DNA from: Planctomycetota bacterium
GTDB taxonomy: Bacteria; Planctomycetota; Planctomycetia; Pirellulales; Lacipirellulaceae
Direction of reading: 5' to 3'
DNA length: 64,000 nt
NCBI GenBank assembly: GCA_039190745.1
Contig: JBCCXZ010000013.1
Span: 1 to 64,000 of the forward strand
In this document: in pieces, positions 39,832 to 52,726 of the stretch
Numbering within the stretch: the stretch's first letter is position 1
Layout of the letters: every line of letters begins with the position of its first letter
The notes under the pieces: generated by a model
The model's database searches: none
What the model was told of the DNA's origin: nothing
The model's input: the letters and a program-made list of their open reading frames with translations, nothing else
Position numbers and translations under genes: made by a program

Positions 39832-40083
39832 GCGTTGCTCCTAGGACACCCTTTTCCAGCCCGCTTCGCAGGAAACTCTCTGGAAAGCTATAGGTCTGGA
39901 GAGCCTCGGGGGCCGGCCCTGACTCGTGGTTTGCCGAGGGCGGTTGCCCTCTAATCCGGGGAGTATACGGCTCAGCGTGGGCGGTTGCAACGTTCGCGGC
40001 GCGGGGGCCGGTTGGCCCCCAAAGCGGCATGGGATACGATCCACGACCCAGCCGACCAGCCAGATGCCCACCGACGGATCGCT

Positions 40084-40479
40084 ATGCAACACGAAATCGA
40101 GATCGAGGTCCGGTACTACGAGACCGACGGCCAAGGGGTGGTGCACCACGCCAACTACATGCAGTACTTTGAGCTGGCGCGGGTGAAGATGCTGCAGTCA
40201 ATGGGCCACGACTACGCCGACCTCGAGCGAGACGGAGTGTTCTTGGTGGTCCACAGCATCAGCTGCCGGTACCACCGGCCGGCGTTGTTCGGCGACACGC
40301 TGCGCATCGTGACAAAGGTTGCCCGGGCGACCTTTGCCCGTATCGACCACACCTACGAAGTCTTCCGCAACGAAGAGCTGCTGGTCGACGGCAAGAGCAC
40401 GATCGCCTGCATCGACCGCAACGGCAAGATCCGCCGGATTCCTTCGCATGTGCTGGGCGAGCCGGAAGAGCATCTGTAA
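40084..40479 (+). CDS. Acyl-CoA thioesterase (4HBT/YbgC family)
   Basis: 'VRYYETDGQGVVHHANYMQYFELAR'. Confidence 0.9.
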   Translation: MQHEIEIEVRYYETDGQGVVHHANYMQYFELARVKMLQSMGHDYADLERDGVFLVVHSISCRYHRPALFGDTLRIVTKVARATFARIDHTYEVFRNEELLVDGKSTIACIDRNGKIRRIPSHVLGEPEEHL

Positions 40480-43417: not shown

Positions 43418-44590
43418 ATGCAATATGAACGCGTCTGCATCGAGTCCCTCGGCTACAGCCTCCCCCAGGAGGTGGTTACCAGCGATGAGATAGAACGCCG
43501 TCTCGGGCCCGCCTACGAGCGGCTCCGGCTGCCGGCCGGCCGGCTGGAGCTGATGAGCGGCATCCGCGAGCGGCGGTTCTTCCCGCCCGGCACGCTGCCG
43601 AGCGACGTGAGCAAAGTGAGCGCCCGCCGGGCGTTGGAAGCCTCGGGGCTGGAGCCCGAGCGGATCGGGGCCTTGATCCATGGCTCGGTGTGCCGCGACG
43701 TGCTGGAGCCCGCCACCGCGTGCGCTGTCCACGAGGCGGTCGGCCTGGGTCCCAACTGCGTAGTGCACGACGTTTCGAACGCCTGCCTGGGCATCCTGAC
43801 GGGCATGGTGCACGTGGCCAACATGATCGAGCTGGGCCAGATCGAGGCGGGCATTGTGGTGGGTACCGAGTGCGGACGCACCCTGGTCGAGAACACGATC
43901 CGGCTTCTGAACGAAGACGCTTCCATCACCCGCCGCGACGTCAAGCAGTTTGTTGCGTCGTTGACCATCGGCTCGGCCAGCGCGGCGGTGTTGCTCTGCA
44001 GCAGCGACGTCAGCCGCACCGGCAACCGCCTGCTCGCGGCACGGGCGGTCGCGCACACCGACCACAACGCGCTCTGCCGCAGCGACGGCATGGACGAGTT
44101 CATGCGGACCGACAGCGAGCAGCTGATGCGCCGCGGCGTTGCCGCCGCGGCGGAGACGTTCGACGGTCTGATGGGCGAGCTCGGTTGGCAGGCCGGCGGG
44201 ATTCAAAAATCCGTGTGCCACCAAGTCGGCTCGGCGCACCGGAAGCTCCTGTTCGACCGCCTGGGGCTGAACCCCGAGATCGACTTCTCGACCTTCGAGA
44301 CGCTGGGCAACACGGGCGCGGCGGCGTTGCCGACCACGCTGGCGATCGCGGCCGAAGCGGGCCGGCTCGACCGGGGCGATCAGCTGGCTTTGATGGGCAT
44401 CGGCTCGGGGATCAACTGCCAGATGCTCGGCGTCGACTGGCAGGAGCAACGGGTATCCGGCGGCGAGTGGGGCGCTCAGGAGGCGACCGACGACGTGAAG
44501 AAGGCCGCGGTAAATAGAGAGGCCGTGCCAGAGCCCAAGATGCTCAAGCGCCAGGCGCTAGCCAAACGCGTAGAACACTACGAGCACTAA
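43418..44590 (+). CDS. OleA-type thiolase / 3-oxoacyl-ACP synthase III family condensing enzyme
   Basis: 'SVCRDVLEPATA' (OleA-type Glu), 'DVSNACLG' (catalytic Cys), 'CHQVG', 'GNTGAA', 'MGIGSGIN'. Confidence 0.8.
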   Translation: MQYERVCIESLGYSLPQEVVTSDEIERRLGPAYERLRLPAGRLELMSGIRERRFFPPGTLPSDVSKVSARRALEASGLEPERIGALIHGSVCRDVLEPATACAVHEAVGLGPNCVVHDVSNACLGILTGMVHVANMIELGQIEAGIVVGTECGRTLVENTIRLLNEDASITRRDVKQFVASLTIGSASAAVLLCSSDVSRTGNRLLAARAVAHTDHNALCRSDGMDEFMRTDSEQLMRRGVAAAAETFDGLMGELGWQAGGIQKSVCHQVGSAHRKLLFDRLGLNPEIDFSTFETLGNTGAAALPTTLAIAAEAGRLDRGDQLALMGIGSGINCQMLGVDWQEQRVSGGEWGAQEATDDVKKAAVNREAVPEPKMLKRQALAKRVEHYEH

Positions 44591-46177
44591 CAACAGCAGC
44601 GACACGCCGACGCCGATGCCGACGTAGAGCCCTACGGGGGGGCCGTAACGCGGCCCGCTGTAGCCCGGCGGGCGGAGCGGGTCGATTTCGCCTGGGGCAC
44701 GGCTCGGACGCTTCGAGACTGGGTCTTTGCTCCGCTCGGCCTCGAGCGCCTCTTCGATGAGCGACTTCTTCGGCTTCTTCGGCTCGGGCTTCTTGGCGAC
44801 GGTGTCGATCGCCGAGGTGAGGTCGTCGGTCGGCGTGGCTGTCTGCGAGAGGACGCCGTGGTCGGTCGATTCGGTCGCCTTCGCGGCGTTGGACTTGGCA
44901 GGAGACTTCGCGGTCTTGCGTTGCTGAGGGGAGTCTTCCTCGAGGGGCGCGAGTTCGAGGTCTTCTTCGTCGATCTGCGGCACGGGCGTGCTACGGCCGC
45001 CGGAGGAGCCGCCATCTAATACGCCGCTGCCGCTGTCGGTGCCCGCCTTGCTGAGCGCCGCGGCGAACCGGCCGTAGATGTCGCTGCCGACGCCGTCACT
45101 GCCTCCGCCTGGCTTGGCGGTCGACCCGCTCGCCACGTCGACGCCACGGTCGGCGAGCCAGTCCGCCATGCGGTCGGCGACTTCCTGGGCGGTCTGGTAC
45201 CGGTCGGCCGGGTTCTTGGCCATCATGCGGTTGCAGATGGTCACCAGGCTCGGCGGTGCGTCGGGGCGGTCGATCAGGATGCTCGGGGCCTCGTCGCGTT
45301 GGTGCGCGAGCAGCCGCTCGGTGATCGTGCCCTCTGGGAATGGCGGGTGGCCGGTGAGCAGGAAGTAGAGCGTGCAGCCCAGGCCGTAGATGTCGGCTCG
45401 CTCGTCGGCGCCGTGGCTGTCGCGGGCCTGCTCGGGGGCGAGGTAGTCGGCCGTGCCGAGCACGTTCTCGTTGTTGTCCATCGTGAGCGACGCTTCGTCG
45501 CCGATCAGCCGGGCGAGGCCCATGTCGAGCACTTTGACCGTGCCCTTGGAATCGACCAAACAGTTCGCGGGCTTGATATCGCGGTGGACGAGGCCCATGG
45601 CGTGGGCGTGCGCGAGCCCCCGCGCGGCCTGAGCGATGTAGTTTGCTGCCGTGTTGTAGTCGAGCGGCCCGTTCGTCTTGACCAGCACGTGGAGGTCTTT
45701 GCCGTCGACGAACTCCATGACCAGGTAGTGCGTCTTGCCGTCCTGGTCGAAGTCGTAGATCCGGACGATGTTGGGGTCGTCGAGCTTGGCGGTGGCGCGG
45801 GCTTCGATGCGGAAGCGTTCGAGGTAGGTGGCGTCCTCCACTCGGCTCGAAGGCAGCACCTTGATGGCCACCTTGCGGTTCATGAGGGTATGCTCGGCGG
45901 CGTAGACGCTGCTCATGCCGCCCTTGCCGAGGTGGCCCAGCAACTTGTACTTTCCGAGCTTGAAGCCCTTGTACTTGCCGGCCAGCAGCTTATCGACCTG
46001 CCACTGAGTGAGGATGCCCTCTTCGATGAGGCGCTTGGCCAAGTCCTCTTGGGTGTCCGGCAGATCGCCGCCCGCCTTCTCGCGGATTGCGGAGAGCGCC
46101 CGTTCGAGCTGCTCGTCCTCGACGAGCTGGCTGCGTCGGATCAGTCCTACAAAGCTGTCGGACACCGTTTTGGTCAT
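44558..46177 (-). CDS. Hanks-type Ser/Thr protein kinase with C-terminal TM anchor
   Basis: 'LGKGGMSSVY', 'VAIKVL', 'HRDIKPAN', 'DMGLA', 'GTADYLAPEQ', hydrophobic C-terminus. Confidence 0.93.
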   Translation of the reverse strand: MTKTVSDSFVGLIRRSQLVEDEQLERALSAIREKAGGDLPDTQEDLAKRLIEEGILTQWQVDKLLAGKYKGFKLGKYKLLGHLGKGGMSSVYAAEHTLMNRKVAIKVLPSSRVEDATYLERFRIEARATAKLDDPNIVRIYDFDQDGKTHYLVMEFVDGKDLHVLVKTNGPLDYNTAANYIAQAARGLAHAHAMGLVHRDIKPANCLVDSKGTVKVLDMGLARLIGDEASLTMDNNENVLGTADYLAPEQARDSHGADERADIYGLGCTLYFLLTGHPPFPEGTITERLLAHQRDEAPSILIDRPDAPPSLVTICNRMMAKNPADRYQTAQEVADRMADWLADRGVDVASGSTAKPGGGSDGVGSDIYGRFAAALSKAGTDSGSGVLDGGSSGGRSTPVPQIDEEDLELAPLEEDSPQQRKTAKSPAKSNAAKATESTDHGVLSQTATPTDDLTSAIDTVAKKPEPKKPKKSLIEEALEAERSKDPVSKRPSRAPGEIDPLRPPGYSGPRYGPPVGLYVGIGVGVSLLLLVLVVFYAFG

Positions 46178-46577: not shown

Positions 46578-47387
46578 TCAGCGGTCGTCCGCAGAGGGTC
46601 GCACGAACTGCTCGTCGAAGTAGTTGACGCCCATCCCAGCGTCGATCACGAGGCTCTGGGCGTTGATGCCGCTAGAGCGGGGGCTGAGGAGGAAGGCCGT
46701 CGCCGCGGAGACTTCTTCGGTCTGCACAGCCCTGCCGCGGAGGGTGGCCCGTTCGGCGTAGAGGTAGGAATCGACGTAACCCGGGATGCCGGCGGAGGCT
46801 GAGGTCTTTAGGAGCCCGGGGGCGACTGCGTTGAACCGCACTTCGGAGAAACGGCTGAAAGACTTGGCGAGAAACACAAGGCTCGAGTCGAGCGCCGCCT
46901 TCACAGGGGCCATGAATCCGTAGTTCTCCGCCGCCATTCTCGTGGTAGAGATAGAAACCGCCACCACCGAGGCGTCGCTGGAAAACTGTTTCTTTAGAGC
47001 ATTGGACAGGGCAACCAGGGAAAAGCAGGAGATGTCGAACGCACGCTGCATTTGGTTCCGACTGGTCTCGTGGAACGGCTGAGGACCACCCTCGTAGTCA
47101 GCGAACGCGATCGAGTGGGCCAACCCGTGGAAGCCGTCGTAGGCGCCGGCGAGTTCTTCGGCGAGGCGGTCGATCTGGTCCTGGTGCTCGACGTCGCAGA
47201 CGTGCACCGGCGAGCCTGCGAGCAGCTTGGCAGTCGATTCGAGCCGCTGTGGTGAGCGGACGACGTAGACCACCTCAGCCCCGGCGTCCCGCAGGTCGCG
47301 GCCGACGTGGTAGGCGACGCTCTTGCGGTTCGCGACGCCGAAGACCACGATCCGGCGGCCTTCGAGTTGGAGGAAGTCAGTTGGCAT
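46578..47387 (-). CDS. fabI: Enoyl-ACP reductase (FabI-like SDR)
   Basis: '[11 protein letters not shown]', 'HSIAFA', '[12 protein letters not shown]' (YxxMxxxK), 'TSASAGIP'. Confidence 0.8.
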
Positions 47388-47395
47388 TCGGAGGA

Positions 47396-47586
47396 TTCAC
47401 CACGGAGACACGGAGGGAGAGGGAGTGCTGAAATGAGGAGGAAGGAAGTTTCCTAACTGTGGGAGGCCTCTCCGAGGCCGATTTCGGAATCGTAGCAAAG
47501 CGGAATCGGGCTCGGAGAGCCCTCCCACAAGGACAAGATTGAAAATCCCTCATCCGTCTCCACGCCCACCGTGCCTCTGTGGTTAA
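47396..47586. repeat. 8-nt periodic inverted repeat pair enclosing REP doublet copy 3
   Basis: Left arm ttcaccacggagacacggaggg (from 47396). Right arm on the minus strand reads ttaaccacagaggcacggtggg (to 47586) and contains the fabZ stop. Confidence 0.75.
47458..47529. repeat. REP doublet family A, copy 3
   Basis: tgtgggaggcctctccgaggccgat ... atcgggctcggagagccctcccaca. Confidence 0.85.
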
Positions 47587-48035
47587 CTCCCCTCAGGCTC
47601 GGCCACCGTGCAGGCGAACTCGCAGCGGCAGGCCACTTTGCCGTCGACGGTTACTTTGCCCTTCATGAAGTAGGCGTTGGCCAGGCGGTCTGTGAGCTCG
47701 ACGTCGATCTGGATCGTGTCGCCGGGGCGGACCATCTTCTTGAACTGCACGTTGTTCAGCCGGGTGGCAACCGGCACGCCGCCGGCGTTGCCCTGGCCGG
47801 CTTGGGCCTCGACGGTGATCTTTGAGAGCAGCACGGCTCCCGCTTGCAGCGACGCCTCGCAGAGCAGCACCCCGGGCGTGAGCGGGTAGTCGGGGTAGTG
47901 GCCGCGGTACCAGAACTCGTCGCCGCTGAAGGTCTTGCGGCAGACGATGTGCTTGTCGTCTTGCTCGACGATCTCGTCGACGAGCAGGAACGGCTCGCGG
48001 TGGGGGATGGCGGCTTGGATCGCTTCTAGGGTCAT
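47583..48035 (-). CDS. fabZ: 3-hydroxyacyl-ACP dehydratase (FabZ-like)
   Basis: 'IPHREPFLLVD', 'GHYPDYPLTPGVLLCEA', 'FKKMVRPGD'. Confidence 0.85.
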   Translation of the reverse strand: MTLEAIQAAIPHREPFLLVDEIVEQDDKHIVCRKTFSGDEFWYRGHYPDYPLTPGVLLCEASLQAGAVLLSKITVEAQAGQGNAGGVPVATRLNNVQFKKMVRPGDTIQIDVELTDRLANAYFMKGKVTVDGKVACRCEFACTVAEPEGS

Positions 48036-48042
48036 TCGGATT

Positions 48043-48155
48043 TAGCCACAGATGGACGCAGATGAACACAGATTAAGAAAGGAGATTGAAGCCACACAAC
48101 AGTCTGGACGGAACGCCGTAACTTATCTGCGTTTATCTGTGTCCATCTGCGGCTA
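48043..48155. repeat. 10-nt periodic inverted repeat pair
   Basis: Left arm tagc|cacagatgga|cgcagatgaa|cacagattaa. Right arm on the minus strand reads tagc|cgcagatgga|cacagataaa|cgcagataa. Confidence 0.85.
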
Positions 48156-48166
48156 TTCTCTTCCCA

Positions 48167-49624
48167 CTACGACGCCACTTCGCTGACACTCTCGGCCGGG
48201 CGGGAGCTGCCGGTCATCAGTTCGTTGTCGACGTCGCTGGCGACCATGCGGCCGTAGTTCATCGCGCCCAGCCAGCCGGACATGATAATGCCGACGCTGC
48301 CGGCGTGGTAGAGACCGCGGACCTGCTCGGGGATCGAGCGGCTCACGGCGAGGCCCTCGAACTTCGTGCCGAAGCTCGCCCCCGCGACGTGGTGCGTGTA
48401 GTGCTGGAACGTCCGCGGCGTAGACGCCTCGACGTGGTCGACGCGGTCGCGGATGTTGGGCACGTACTTGTCGAGCGCGTCGAGCGTCGTCTCGCAGAGG
48501 TCGGCTTTGCTCGCCTTGTATTCGTCGTCCGGCAGGTGGGCCCAGTCGTCGTAGTTGGCGTTGGTGCTGGAGACGATCAGGCAACGCGGCTTCCCCTGCG
48601 GGCGGGTCCGCGGGTAGTAGAACGAGTACGTGCGGCTGGTGATGTCGCGGGAGAGCAACAGGTCGGTGCGGAACAACGGCGCGGTGGAGCTGAACAGCAG
48701 GTCGCCGGTCGACTCGTCGATCCGCTCGTCGGGCTTCAGCGCCATGTAGACCTGAGTGCTGCTGTTGTTGAGCCGCACGGCCTTGGCGTTGTCGACGAAG
48801 TTCTTGTCGAACTTGTCCTCGCCAATCAGGCGGAAGATCGTTTGCTTGAGATTGGCGTTGGAGACGACCGCGCGGCACTTGATCCGGCGGCCGTTGACCT
48901 CGACAGCGCGGACGCGGCCGCCGTCGCAGTCGATGCGCTCCACGTCGCAGCGGATGCGGATGTCGACGCCACTCTTCTTGAGGTCGGCTTCCATGAGCTC
49001 GATGAGGTGGTCGGTTCCGCCCTCGAAGGTGAAGACGCCCTTGGACATAAAGTTGCTGAAGACGATGCCGTAGCTGATGGCGGGGTCTTCGAGCGTGCTG
49101 CCGTTGGCGTAGGTGATGGGCTCCATCAGCAGCCGGATGACGTCCTCGCGGCCGGGGAAGTACTTGTCGAACAGCTCGCGCGTGGTGGTCTGCTGGTCGT
49201 CGTAAAAGTCCATGCCTCGGGCCTCGTCGAAGAAGCCTTGCACGGCAGCCGGCTCGACCTTGAAGTGCTCGATGAGCAGCTTGGTGAAGTCCTCGCGGTT
49301 GAACGAGGTGGTGAGCGAGAACATCGGGTTGTCGAACCGGATGCCCTTGAGCTGGACGATGCTGTCGGCGATCTCACGGGTCCAGTAGCGGCGGCAGCTC
49401 TTGACCATGCCGTAGGGGAATCCGTGGAGCGAGACGTCGAAGATGTGCCCGCCGGGCCGTTTGAACCAGGTGGCCATGCCGCCGAGCTTGTAGTGCTGTT
49501 CGAGGAGGATGACGGAGTAACCGGCGCGGGCGAGGATATTGGCGGCGGTGAGCCCGCCGAGGCCGCTGCCGATGACGGCGACGTCATACTCGTCCTTGGC
49601 ACCTGCTAGAAAGTCTTTGGGCAT
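48167..49624 (-). CDS. CrtI/phytoene desaturase-family FAD-dependent oxidoreductase (paralog 2)
   Basis: '[13 protein letters not shown]', 'LEQHYKLGG', 'FDVSLH', '[10 protein letters not shown]', 'GLYHAG'. Confidence 0.85.
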
Positions 49625-49704
49625 GAGTGCTGCTTACGCTGCTCGTTCGCGAAATCGAAACCCCGATGGTATCCGACCTGGGCCGCCGCGGTAAGGCTCG
49701 GCAC

Positions 49705-51081
49705 TCACCGCAAACAGTGCTGGTTCGCCATGCCGATGCCGCTGACGATGCTGCCGATAATGCCCACAAAGCCCTGGTCGGTGCCGCAGACGAAGAGGTT
49801 CTCGAGGTGCGTCGTGCCGTCGAGCTGTTTCTCGGGGGCGCCGTAGATGGCGCCGTTGTCGTGGCCTGTGAAGCGGACAATGGTGGTCGGGGTGAACATG
49901 TCGGTGTCCACCACGCGGTGGCGGTAGTCGGGCACGAAGCGGCAGGCCGAGTCGGTGATGCGGTCGTACCAGCGGAGCTTCTCCAGGCGGTACTCTTCCT
50001 CGGGCAGGCCGGCCCAGTGCTCGAAATTCGCCAGCGCCGTGATGCGCATCACGCCGTCGGGCAGCGGCTCGTCGTAGACGAAGTTGTTCGGGCTGCAGAT
50101 CACGCCGCTGCGGAGGTCGCACGGCTCTTCGGGCGGCTCCCAGGCAAACTTGTCGCAGTCGTTGTAGAAGGTGATCGTGCGGTCGTGCCCCACGTCCTGC
50201 GGCTGCACGTCGAGCGAGGCGATCGTCTCGCAGAACGTCAGCCGCCCCGGGCCGCGATCGGTCGGGGGCTGCGACGCGTTGCCGCAGAGCCGCATGGTTT
50301 CGACCCAACCGGCCGAAGAGAGCACGCGTTTGCCTTCGAGCCGCTCGCCCGACTGAAGGACGGCGCCCACGATTCGGCCGTCTTCTACCTCTAGCCGATC
50401 GACGCCGGCGCGGAGCTTCAATTCGCCGCCCAGCCCGCGGAACTTGCGGACGAGTTGCTTCAGGATGAGCCGCACGCCCGCGTGCGGGCGGCCAAGGCCC
50501 TCCATGAAGATGCTGCGGAACATGATGGAGAACTGCCCCCAGTCCATGTCGTGCTCGCGGGCCGAGCCGTAGAACATCAGCGGGCAAAAGAGCATCTCGA
50601 CGAGCAGCGGCTCGCCGAGGATCTCGTTGAGCCGCTCGCGGGCGGAGATGTGCTGGTGCTCCTCAGCGAGGTCGTCGTACTCGACGATCGCGTCGATGAG
50701 CCGGTCGAAGTTGGCGGCCTCGCCGGGGAAGGCGGCGGCGATCTCGGAGCGGAGCAGGTCGAGGTCGTTGTCGAACCGGAACCGCGCACCGGGGAAGACG
50801 ACCTCGGAACCGACCTGCGGGGAGATCTCCAGTTCGTCCCAGCCGATGCGGAGCTGCCGCAGCAGACGCGCGAGCGGGCCCTTCTTCGTGCCCTTGGGCG
50901 TAATGTTCGTGAGCGCGTGCAGGCCGACGTCGTAGTCGCGGCCGCGGAGGCGGTAGAAGGAGTTCAGCCCGCCGATGGTGTAGTGCCGTTCGAGGATGCA
51001 GACGCGCTGGTCGTAGTAGGCCAGGCGGATGCCGGCAGCCAGGCCCGACATGCCGGCGCCGATGATGATCGTGTCGTACAT
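49705..51081 (-). CDS. CrtI/phytoene desaturase-family FAD-dependent oxidoreductase (paralog 1)
   Basis: 'YDTIIIGAGMSGL', 'LERHYTIGG', 'YDVGLH', 'FTPTTIVRFT...GAIYG', 'NLFVCG'. Confidence 0.85.
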   Translation of the reverse strand: MYDTIIIGAGMSGLAAGIRLAYYDQRVCILERHYTIGGLNSFYRLRGRDYDVGLHALTNITPKGTKKGPLARLLRQLRIGWDELEISPQVGSEVVFPGARFRFDNDLDLLRSEIAAAFPGEAANFDRLIDAIVEYDDLAEEHQHISARERLNEILGEPLLVEMLFCPLMFYGSAREHDMDWGQFSIMFRSIFMEGLGRPHAGVRLILKQLVRKFRGLGGELKLRAGVDRLEVEDGRIVGAVLQSGERLEGKRVLSSAGWVETMRLCGNASQPPTDRGPGRLTFCETIASLDVQPQDVGHDRTITFYNDCDKFAWEPPEEPCDLRSGVICSPNNFVYDEPLPDGVMRITALANFEHWAGLPEEEYRLEKLRWYDRITDSACRFVPDYRHRVVDTDMFTPTTIVRFTGHDNGAIYGAPEKQLDGTTHLENLFVCGTDQGFVGIIGSIVSGIGMANQHCLR

Positions 51082-51162
51082 GGGCGTCGAGAGTGGTTGG
51101 TCGTGGGGGTTGGGAGGGACAAGCTGACGAGCAGTTGCTCCCACTCCCTGCTCCCGCTCCCA

Positions 51163-51423
51163 CTACACCTTCTGTACGTCCTTCATGAGCGGCTCGAGGT
51201 ACGTCACGGTCGACTGCATGCTGGCGAGGTTCACGTAGTCGTCCTCGGGCACCTGGACGCGGTGGCGCTTGCGGAGCTCCATGACGATGTCGAGGAAGTC
51301 CATGCTGTCGAGTTCGAGCTGCTCGCGGAAGCTCACCTCGTCCTTGAGGTCGGTGAGGTCTTCGTCGGGGGCAATGGACTCGAGGATGTCGAGGATCTCT
51401 TCGCGGATTTCGGGGGGTGTCAT
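51163..51423 (-). CDS. Acyl carrier protein
   Basis: 86 aa, acidic, phosphopantetheine site 'LELDSMDFLDIVMEL'. Confidence 0.92.
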   Translation of the reverse strand: MTPPEIREEILDILESIAPDEDLTDLKDEVSFREQLELDSMDFLDIVMELRKRHRVQVPEDDYVNLASMQSTVTYLEPLMKDVQKV

Positions 51424-51484
51424 CTGACGCTAACTCCTCCTGCGGGCCGGCGTCCACGCCGGCGTGTGGGTCGGGCGGGGCTCG

Positions 51485-52726
51485 CTAGGGCTTGGCGACG
51501 ATCAACACCGAGTTGATGCCCAGCATGCCGAACGAGTTGTTAAGGATGTACTGGATGGGCTGCTCGCGGGCCTCGTTGAGCACCAGGCCGGGCAGATCGC
51601 ACTCGGGGTCGAGGTTGTCGACGTTGATCGTCGGGTGGCAGACGCCGTCTTCGAAGCTTGGGAGATTGCCGGCGAGTTCGAGCGAGCCGGCGGCTCCCAT
51701 CGCGTGGCCGATGAAGCTCTTGGTGTTGTTGATCATGGTGCGGTCGCTGCCGCCAAAGACGCGTCGCAACGCCTCGCACTCTTGGATGTCTCCGCTGGAC
51801 GTGGCGGTGGCGTGCGTGCTGACGATGTCGATGTCTTCGGCGTTTAGCCGGGCCCGTTGCAAAGCGAGCTCGATGCAACGAGACTGCTGGTCGGGGTTGG
51901 GGAGGACGAAGTCGCTGGCGTCGCTGTTCATGGCGTAGCCGACGATCTCGCCGTAGACTTTGGCGCCGCGTCGGCGGGCAACGGGCAGGCGCTCCAGCGT
52001 GTAGAGGCAGCCGCCCTCGGAAACGACGATGCCGTTGCGGTCGCGGTCGAAGGGGCGTGAGGCGAGCGCCGGGTCGTCGTGCTCGGCCAGTGCGCCCTGG
52101 CTTGCGAAGCCGGCGAAGATGCCGAACGTGTGGATGCTCTCAGAGACGCCGCCGGCGATGGCGAGGTCGCACTCGCCAAGGGTGAGCATCTGGAGCCCTT
52201 GGATCAGGCCCGCGTTGCCGGCGGCGCAGGCTGCGCCGAGCGTGTAGTGGGGGCCGGTGATGCCCATATTGAGCGAGATCTCGCCCGCGGGGTTGTTCGC
52301 CACGGTGCGGGGGTTGTGGTGGTGGGACCACACCTTCGTGTCGTAGTCGAAGGCTTTGATTTCGTTGATCTCGTTCTCGGTCTCGACGTTGCCGTGCTCG
52401 GTGACGCCGATATAGACGCCGACGCGCTCACGGTCGGTGGCGTCCCAGTCGACGCCGGAGTCGGCCACGGCCTCGCGGGCGCAGAAGATCGCGACGCCGC
52501 CGGCGCGGGTGCCTCGGCGGACCTCCTTGCGTTTCTGGTACCGCAGCTCGTCGAAGTCGCACTGGCCGGCGAGCGTCTTGCCGACGTAGCGGATCTCGTA
52601 ATCGCCCACGCCGCTGCGGCCTGCGAGCAACGCCTCACGGTACTCCGAGAGGGAGTTGCCGTTGGGCGAGGTGAGGCCGACGCCTGTGATCACGATGCGC
52701 TGGTCGTCGTTGGCCGTACGGATCAT
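51485..52726 (-). CDS. fabF: Beta-ketoacyl-ACP synthase (FabF/FabB family)
   Basis: 'RIVITGVG', active Cys 'AACAAG', 'SRPFDRDRNG', His 'STHATAT', 'KSFIGHAMGAAG', 'NNSFG'. Confidence 0.88.
   Translation of the reverse strand: MIRTANDDQRIVITGVGLTSPNGNSLSEYREALLAGRSGVGDYEIRYVGKTLAGQCDFDELRYQKRKEVRRGTRAGGVAIFCAREAVADSGVDWDATDRERVGVYIGVTEHGNVETENEINEIKAFDYDTKVWSHHHNPRTVANNPAGEISLNMGITGPHYTLGAACAAGNAGLIQGLQMLTLGECDLAIAGGVSESIHTFGIFAGFASQGALAEHDDPALASRPFDRDRNGIVVSEGGCLYTLERLPVARRRGAKVYGEIVGYAMNSDASDFVLPNPDQQSRCIELALQRARLNAEDIDIVSTHATATSSGDIQECEALRRVFGGSDRTMINNTKSFIGHAMGAAGSLELAGNLPSFEDGVCHPTINVDNLDPECDLPGLVLNEAREQPIQYILNNSFGMLGINSVLIVAKP

Follow-up and report, generated by a model that had tools for sequence, protein, structure and literature searches.

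We describe a cluster of six genes from the genome of a planctomycete of the Lacipirellulaceae (assembly GCA_039190745.1). It lies on the minus strand of contig JBCCXZ010000013.1, within a stretch of 64,000 nucleotides (the window), and encodes a dedicated ketosynthase (KS), a dedicated acyl carrier protein (ACP), two flavoproteins of the CrtI fold that we call A and B, a FabZ-type dehydratase and a FabI-like enoyl-ACP reductase. Its gene content, its linkage to ole genes and its near-exclusive distribution against the Pfa synthase point to a supplier of acyl chains. The cluster very probably feeds OleA, and we put at roughly 0.75 the probability that it is a type II substitute for Pfa, which would build a methylene-interrupted acyl-ACP (likely 16:4n-3) for conversion by OleABCD to C31:9. 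We found no description of the six-gene cluster or of its ole link in a literature search for which most subscription journals and supplements lay outside coverage; it is a real, widespread and uncharacterised module, very probably a supplier of the Ole pathway.

Linkage of the cluster to ole genes

An oleA gene, missing from an initial annotation of this DNA, lies at 43418..44590 on the plus strand, 2 kb downstream of the cluster and convergent with it across a Ser/Thr protein kinase gene. Its product scores 429 bits (cut-off 285) against NF006720, a model that we take to be OleA. We assign it to this family of head-to-head condensing thiolases because of that match and because such genes precede oleB, oleC or oleD in two related loci. 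In one of these (L084) a single strand reads KS-ACP-A-B-fabG-fabZ-fabI-oleA-oleB-oleC, and the spacings after fabI are 0, -34 and 3 nt. The other (L086) has oleA-oleB-oleC-oleD, then a conserved small gene and then the cluster, and in a third (L085) an oleBC fusion, oleD and oleA are divergent from the cluster. On this comparative evidence, OleA is the likely consumer of the acyl-ACP of the cluster.

The linkage recurs more widely. Among 80 closer loci, 43 carry at least one ole gene (oleA in 25, oleD in 26, oleC in 11), with oleC-oleD usually placed ahead of the KS gene. Within a phylum-wide sample, oleA lies no more than 16 kb from the gene for flavoprotein B in 23 of 50 genomes, from eight families. 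The OleABCD set is complete in the genome of the window: oleC-oleD is at C1:124314-121560 and oleB at C1:107113-107967, with OleC above the NF006754 cut-off, OleD matching NF042422 best at 378 bits (under the cut-off of 580) and OleB found by tblastn at 38%.

The kinase gene (44558-46174, minus strand, as the cluster) lies between fabI and oleA. It may be co-transcribed with the cluster or just syntenic, since 22 of 100 loci have a member of its homologue family. A gene at 39985-40479 on the plus strand, some 3 kb away from oleA, encodes a hot-dog protein, presumably acyl-CoA thioesterase-like, which had no counterpart in the list of neighbour families of the loci.

Near-exclusive distribution of the cluster and Pfa

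Our survey was confined to Planctomycetota and comprised a phylum sample of 251 genomes and a class sample of 151, with 382 distinct genomes in their union. A genome was scored as PfaA-like at a match of E ≤ 1e-130, a threshold that also admits other iterative polyketide synthases (PKSs). An identical set of 50 genomes in the phylum sample holds KS, A and B, including those where the genes are scattered on the chromosome. OleA was found in 87 genomes and a PfaA-like match in 43, of which 31 were over the cut-off. All 50 cluster genomes have OleA, and 36 of the 37 OleA genomes without the cluster have a PfaA-like match (31 over the cut-off); one genome has both the cluster and a PfaA-like match, and one OleA genome has neither. 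The class sample gave the same picture, with OleA in 67/67 cluster genomes and PfaA-like matches in 56/58 other OleA genomes. Across the union, OleA is present in 98 of 98 genomes with the marker flavoprotein, and 92 of the 95 remaining OleA genomes are PfaA-like. These counts show that the module is near-exclusive with Pfa in its distribution.

The exchange is also visible within families. In one family (f12) the cluster is present in 33 of 36 genomes, and the three that lack it are exactly those with PfaA over the cut-off. The family of the window has no genome over the PfaA cut-off among 89, with weaker matches in three, and in the genome of the window itself no protein was over the TIGR02813 (PfaA) cut-off and none matched TIGR02814 (PfaD). 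By family, the phylum sample divides into 10 with the cluster and 16 with Pfa, and one (f56) is mixed. The initial annotation had suggested an unusual or polyunsaturated lipid as the product, and the co-occurrence with OleA and the exchange with Pfa give a polyunsaturated product strong comparative support. Named relatives of B come from Deltaproteobacteria and Bdellovibrionota, and Verrucomicrobiota make up most of one Atlas cluster.

The OleA phylogeny is consistent with this exchange. We built an unrooted tree, with unsettled bootstrap, from 52 rows picked by hand from the 193 OleA genomes and the named loci, leaving out a divergent second OleA copy (L138). Seventeen of the 19 Pfa-linked OleA proteins, together with those of G281 and G318, fall on one 100/100 branch, from which cluster-linked rows are absent. 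OleA from Pfa genomes in the mixed families f12 and f56 also belongs to this branch, apart from the cluster-bearing members of the same families, so OleA appears to have been exchanged jointly with its supplier module. The genomes that hold both systems carry OleA of the cluster type.

Occurrence of C31:9

The known lipids fit the proposed product. Two 16:4n-3 chains are the predicted origin of C31:9, and Pfa needs both a trans-2 to cis-2 and a trans-2 to cis-3 isomerisation (PMC4882568); OleA likely takes its chains directly from ACP (PMC6463001). Among planctomycetes, Gemmataceae make n-C31:9 (PMC7534041), and pfa-like genes of Gemmata and Planctomyces limnophilus were proposed as olefin suppliers (PMC3098273). 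For Lacipirellula parvula, a published table gives n-C31:9, at 2.8%, as the sole hydrocarbon and lists no polyunsaturated fatty acid; the species is non-pigmented and contains C28-C35 hydroxy acids (PMC6995999). Its orthologue of A (BBO32435.1) is 80% identical to flavoprotein A. From the family survey, and assuming that the family of the window is that of L. parvula, we infer that this species has the whole cluster and no Pfa.

[quoted passage not shown]

A second, specialised set of fatty-acid synthesis genes

The six co-oriented open reading frames run from 52726 to 46578, and both their coordinates and their Pfam families agree with the initial annotation. A FabF-type KS of 413 amino acids (51485..52726, minus strand as for all six; ketoacyl-synt) is followed by the ACP of 86 amino acids (51163..51423; PP-binding), flavoprotein A with 458 (49705..51081) and flavoprotein B with 485 (48167..49624), both Amino_oxidase proteins with an intact GxGxxG, A being of the CrtI/CRTISO fold. 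The dehydratase of 150 amino acids (47583..48035; FabA-like) and the reductase of 269 (46578..47387; adh_short_C2) complete the series. In the same order, the intergenic gaps are 61, 81, 80, 131 and 195 nt. FabZ alone passes its NCBIfam cut-off (114.3 versus 113); the KS (327 versus 493 for fabF) and the FabI-like protein (152 versus 391) are far under theirs.

KS, the serine motif of the ACP, dehydratase and enoyl reductase together form a discrete type II elongation module, and their motifs are conserved over 53-76 alignment rows. The KS has an intact Cys-His-His triad. The initial annotation had read its HATAT motif as a sign of specialisation; the motif is present, but the conserved form is HAT[G/A/S]T (53/53 rows), and HATAT proper is found in 18 of the 53. 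All 53 rows read SFGM[L/V]G in the C-terminal loop, where the housekeeping FabF reads SFGFGG; Met thus replaces the Phe of the FGFGG loop, which is the gatekeeper of FabF. The attachment motif of the ACP is DSM in 55/55 rows and DSL in the housekeeping ACP. By alignment, the catalytic pair of FabZ is His and Glu, not that of the FabA isomerase type, which is marked by Asp at the catalytic position. The FabI-like enzyme, in which the initial annotation had noted the absence of the first Tyr of the usual motif, has Ile146 there in 59/59 rows and keeps Tyr156 and Lys163 (Y-x6-K).

The window cluster has neither a ketoreductase nor a malonyl transferase of its own. The flanking genes scanned around it included no carotenoid, fabD, fabG or radical-SAM gene, in line with the initial annotation, which had also called for confirmation of a separate housekeeping set. 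This set exists in the 3.9-Mb, 95.5% complete genome: a fabD-fabG-acpP-fabF operon is on contig C10, fabI on C15 and fabH on C16, and the six-gene cluster is therefore a second, specialised set. Six of the 100 clustered loci (for example L082, L084 and L100) contain a FabG within the gene set, and the best match of these embedded FabGs in the genome of the window is the housekeeping FabG.

In the search for related loci, 594 of 599 pattern matches were confirmed and 80 loci were kept, all titled Planctomycetota or subgroups; the relatives point to Pirellulales. Of these 80, 38 have all six genes together, as do 25 of the 44 whose flanks are complete, so their clustering is not a matter of chance. 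Flavoprotein B was present in all 21 genomes of an order-level sample. A promoter scan returned nothing exceeding shuffled sequences.

Several further features of the locus and the genome are recorded here. Two intergenic palindromes inside the operon, at 48043-48155 (31-nt arms) and 47458-47529 (29-nt arms), look like REP-type repeats because the genome has similar sequences at about 17 and 80 sites. The interval between A and B is an insertion hot spot within the operon, with lineage-specific insertions of 1.3-4.5 kb in L003, L004, L005, L009, L023, L024, L079 and others. Directly upstream of KS, three loci of distant families share a conserved gene of about 200 codons (products 40% identical; L081:11845-12558 and L086:6570-7172 are examples), which gave no NCBIfam match at 1e-20 and presumably encodes a small DNA-binding regulator. 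A further fabZ-acp-fabZ-fabF set at C85:4521-7612, which in our view resembles very-long-chain fatty-acid clusters, may account for the C28-C35 hydroxy acids that planctomycetes contain. At C21:1-15000, a modular type I PKS with two KS domains (2681 amino acids), two halogenase-like flavoproteins and an adenylation enzyme form a secondary-metabolite cluster; this synthase was rejected as a Pfa on account of its two-KS modular layout and its halogenase-like neighbours.

The two flavoproteins

The homology of flavoproteins A and B extends over 419 columns; they are 25% identical to each other, and both alignments keep the FAD fingerprint. A heterodimer of the two, as raised in the initial annotation, is a possibility. 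The best NCBIfam model of A is the CrtH/CRTISO cis-trans isomerase (carot_isom; 86 versus a cut-off of 587), and that of B is CrtD (107 versus 550), with crtI_fam at 89 versus 238; sequence searches of the PDB returned weak CrtI matches only. The CrtI fold is seen in the model of B (pLDDT 91), whose closest structure is the gamma-carotenoid desaturase 4rep (Z 32.9, root-mean-square deviation 2.9, 434 residues aligned, 17% identity), with CrtI, amine oxidases and a fatty-acid isomerase following at Z 23-24. For isomerisation, CRTISO and CrtI under anaerobic conditions use reduced FAD, and CrtI also acts as a FAD oxidase/dehydrogenase (PMC3382138). We predict that flavoprotein A forms cis double bonds, a task that it probably shares with B. 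A natural fusion of B with FabZ (P0003; 625 amino acids) suggests that these two enzymes may act in sequence on one intermediate.

A proposed route to C31:9

In the route that we propose, KS would elongate the chain on its private ACP, with FabD borrowed from the housekeeping set and FabG borrowed in the genome of the window and private in some lineages, and FabZ would yield trans-2-enoyl-ACP. The structure of 4Z,7Z,10Z,13Z-16:4 implies seven elongation rounds in which the trans-2-enoyl group would have three fates. At C4, C10 and C16 the FabI-like enzyme would reduce it, at C6 and C12 it would shift from trans-2 to cis-3, and at C8 and C14 it would isomerise from trans-2 to cis-2. Both of these isomerisations are carried out in Pfa by dehydratase (DH) domains. 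The cluster contains no FabA-type enzyme and always keeps exactly two FAD proteins, which fits a division of labour: most likely A would catalyse one isomerisation and B the other, using reduced flavin without net redox change in the manner of CRTISO, and the altered KS would pull the cis products onward. We give this chemistry about even odds. OleA would then condense two chains from the private ACP head to head, and OleD, OleC and OleB would finish the olefin; the link to OleABCD is what names C31:9 as the likely product.

With slightly less confidence than that, we suggest that CrtI-fold isomerases in a type II synthase constitute a third route to all-cis, methylene-interrupted chains, beside O2-dependent desaturases and Pfa. 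It is similarly tentative that the two flavoproteins are programmed by chain length and that such a module is interchangeable with Pfa and present beyond Planctomycetota.

Comparison with known systems

The cluster would work like Pfa plus Ole without being a member of Pfa. The Pfa-OleABCD systems of Shewanella, Photobacterium and Geobacter bemidjiensis, which make C31:9, have the same ole genes downstream in the same genomic slot, share the logic of KS, ACP, ketoreductase, DH and enoyl reductase, and are predicted to use the same 16:4n-3 precursor. Whereas Pfa consists of a multidomain PfaA with tandem ACPs, PfaBC and PfaD, the cluster encodes discrete type II enzymes with one ACP, has a FabI-type reductase in place of PfaD and FabZ in place of FabA-type or PKS DH domains, and adds the two CrtI-fold flavoproteins; its OleA lies outside the Pfa-linked branch.

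The initial annotation had named the ladderane clusters of anammox bacteria as a possible parallel. These FASII candidates (kuste3603-3608 and kuste3335-3352), which are syntenic with D. psychrophila loci (DP1860 and DP2405/DP2406), share ACP, FabF, FabZ and phytoene-dehydrogenase-like gene types with the window cluster, which unlike them has no radical SAM/B12 protein and no pair of FabF and non-canonical FabF (KS/chain-length factor). In two loci of a ladderane-type genome (L150 and L151) we found both the radical SAM protein (TIGR04072 over cut-off) and this pair. Their flavoproteins are 21-25% identical to A and B in the main alignments and their KS 31-34% to ours; the flavoprotein profile reached at best E 1e-17 in the ladderane-type family, over the N-terminal part only, in 3/3 genomes. 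Orthologues of A, B and KS were found in 0 of 14 genomes of that family, as was OleA. The kinship did not hold up, and we rejected a ladderane reading of the cluster, which lacks radical SAM and is not orthologous to the ladderane clusters tested. The flavoproteins of ladderane clusters are still described as having no assigned role (bioRxiv 10.64898/2026.05.19.726425).

A fatty-acid isomerase of the same superfold is also known. The polyunsaturated-fatty-acid isomerase of Propionibacterium acnes (2b9w) aligns with the model of B over 389 residues (Z 23.4, root-mean-square deviation 3.6), at 15% identity and with a Z tied with those of amine oxidases. This enzyme conjugates free polyunsaturated fatty acids rather than building cis bonds on ACP.

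Alternative explanations

Support for the proposed role is comparative throughout, and several observations weigh against it, besides the permissive PfaA threshold. Related genomes are not independent, so Fisher P values overstate the association and the family counts carry more weight. Across the union, the cluster coincides with a PfaA-like match in three genomes (G013, G274 and G266), and three OleA genomes have neither (G022, G281 and G318). The matches in G013 and G266 sit in other iterative PKS layouts, whereas G274, whose OleA is of the cluster type, holds in addition to the cluster a genuine Pfa-like set, unlinked to its oleA, in which a stand-alone synthase is accompanied by PfaD (L140; G274:C1:256000-275000). 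In the family of the window, one genome (G007) has flavoprotein B together with a PfaA match under the cut-off, and two long-branch Pfa-linked OleA proteins (L118 and L122) fall outside the Pfa branch. The best sequence and fold matches of B are desaturases, not isomerases, and trans-to-cis shifts are uphill and need pulling. Five membrane desaturases in the genome of the window make an aerobic source of double bonds possible. Finally, only one cultured C31:9 producer is tied to the cluster, through one gene, and the passages considered give no double-bond positions for its C31:9 (PMC6995999).

The alternative closest to our proposal lies inside it, and its likelihood is not additive. A and B may be dehydrogenases that strip enoyl-ACP of allylic hydrogens to give 2,4-dienoyl-ACP, which the Tyr-less FabI would reduce to cis-4/cis-3, with quinone or oxygen as acceptor. 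The CrtD/CrtI desaturase matches of B, the oxidase/dehydrogenase activity of CrtI (PMC3382138), the loss of the first FabI Tyr in every row and the earlier proposal of such desaturases for D. psychrophila (PMC2649909) all speak for this variant; yet dehydrogenation of the CrtI type lengthens a conjugated system, whereas the double bonds of C31:9 are all cis and methylene-interrupted (PMC3382138, PMC4882568), and the best model of A is an isomerase. We consider the variant unlikely, if a serious competitor for the chemistry. Less likely still is that OleA receives from the cluster some other chain, be it shorter, conjugated, branched or of lower unsaturation, so that the product is another olefin, a ketone or a beta-lactone and C31:9 is sourced elsewhere. 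The position of the cluster-linked OleA outside the Pfa branch would allow another substrate, and the membrane desaturases and the genomes that keep both systems fit this explanation, but a shared product is favoured by how nearly the cluster and Pfa replace each other one for one, oleB is present in the genome of the window, and n-C31:9 is the one hydrocarbon tabulated for L. parvula (PMC6995999).

Two explanations separate the cluster from the Ole pathway altogether. It is improbable that the cluster makes a membrane acyl lipid, such as very long omega-1 hydroxy acids or a ladderane-like precursor, with the tie to ole being inherited synteny. L. parvula does contain C28-C35 hydroxy acids (PMC6995999), and the kinase gene does separate the cluster from the convergent oleA in the window; against this stand OleA in 98/98 genomes, the several fused gene orders and the exchange with Pfa, as well as the occurrence of such hydroxy acids in Gemmataceae (PMC7534041), the additional fabZ-acp-fabZ-fabF set on C85 and the lack of orthology to the ladderane clusters tested. 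That A and B are carotenoid desaturases or isomerases merely sited among fab genes is the least credible explanation, with odds of a few in a hundred at most. They share the CrtI-family annotation, fold (4rep, Z 32.9; 4dgk, Z 23.7) and FAD fingerprint with CrtI, CrtD and CRTISO, but are 17-18% identical to these proteins, score far under every family cut-off and stand in a FAS/ole context. No squalene/phytoene synthase (PF00494) was found in the 95.5% complete genome, which makes a carotenoid substrate, named in the initial annotation as a possible objection, unlikely. The lack of pigment in L. parvula (PMC6995999) and the failure of the distant anammox flavoproteins to make lycopene (PMC4790861) point the same way, and we rejected the carotenoid reading.

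Implications

If the role of the cluster as a type II substitute for Pfa is confirmed, it would provide a gene set for how bacteria without Pfa make omega-3-type C31:9, a question raised by Rattray 2009, and would bear on the use of C31:9 as a biomarker. Omega-3 chains would then be made by six or seven small soluble proteins encoded in about 6 kb, which would be easier to dissect and engineer than Pfa. The CrtI fold would gain a role on acyl-ACP, and this may inform the function of the phytoene-dehydrogenase-like proteins of ladderane clusters.

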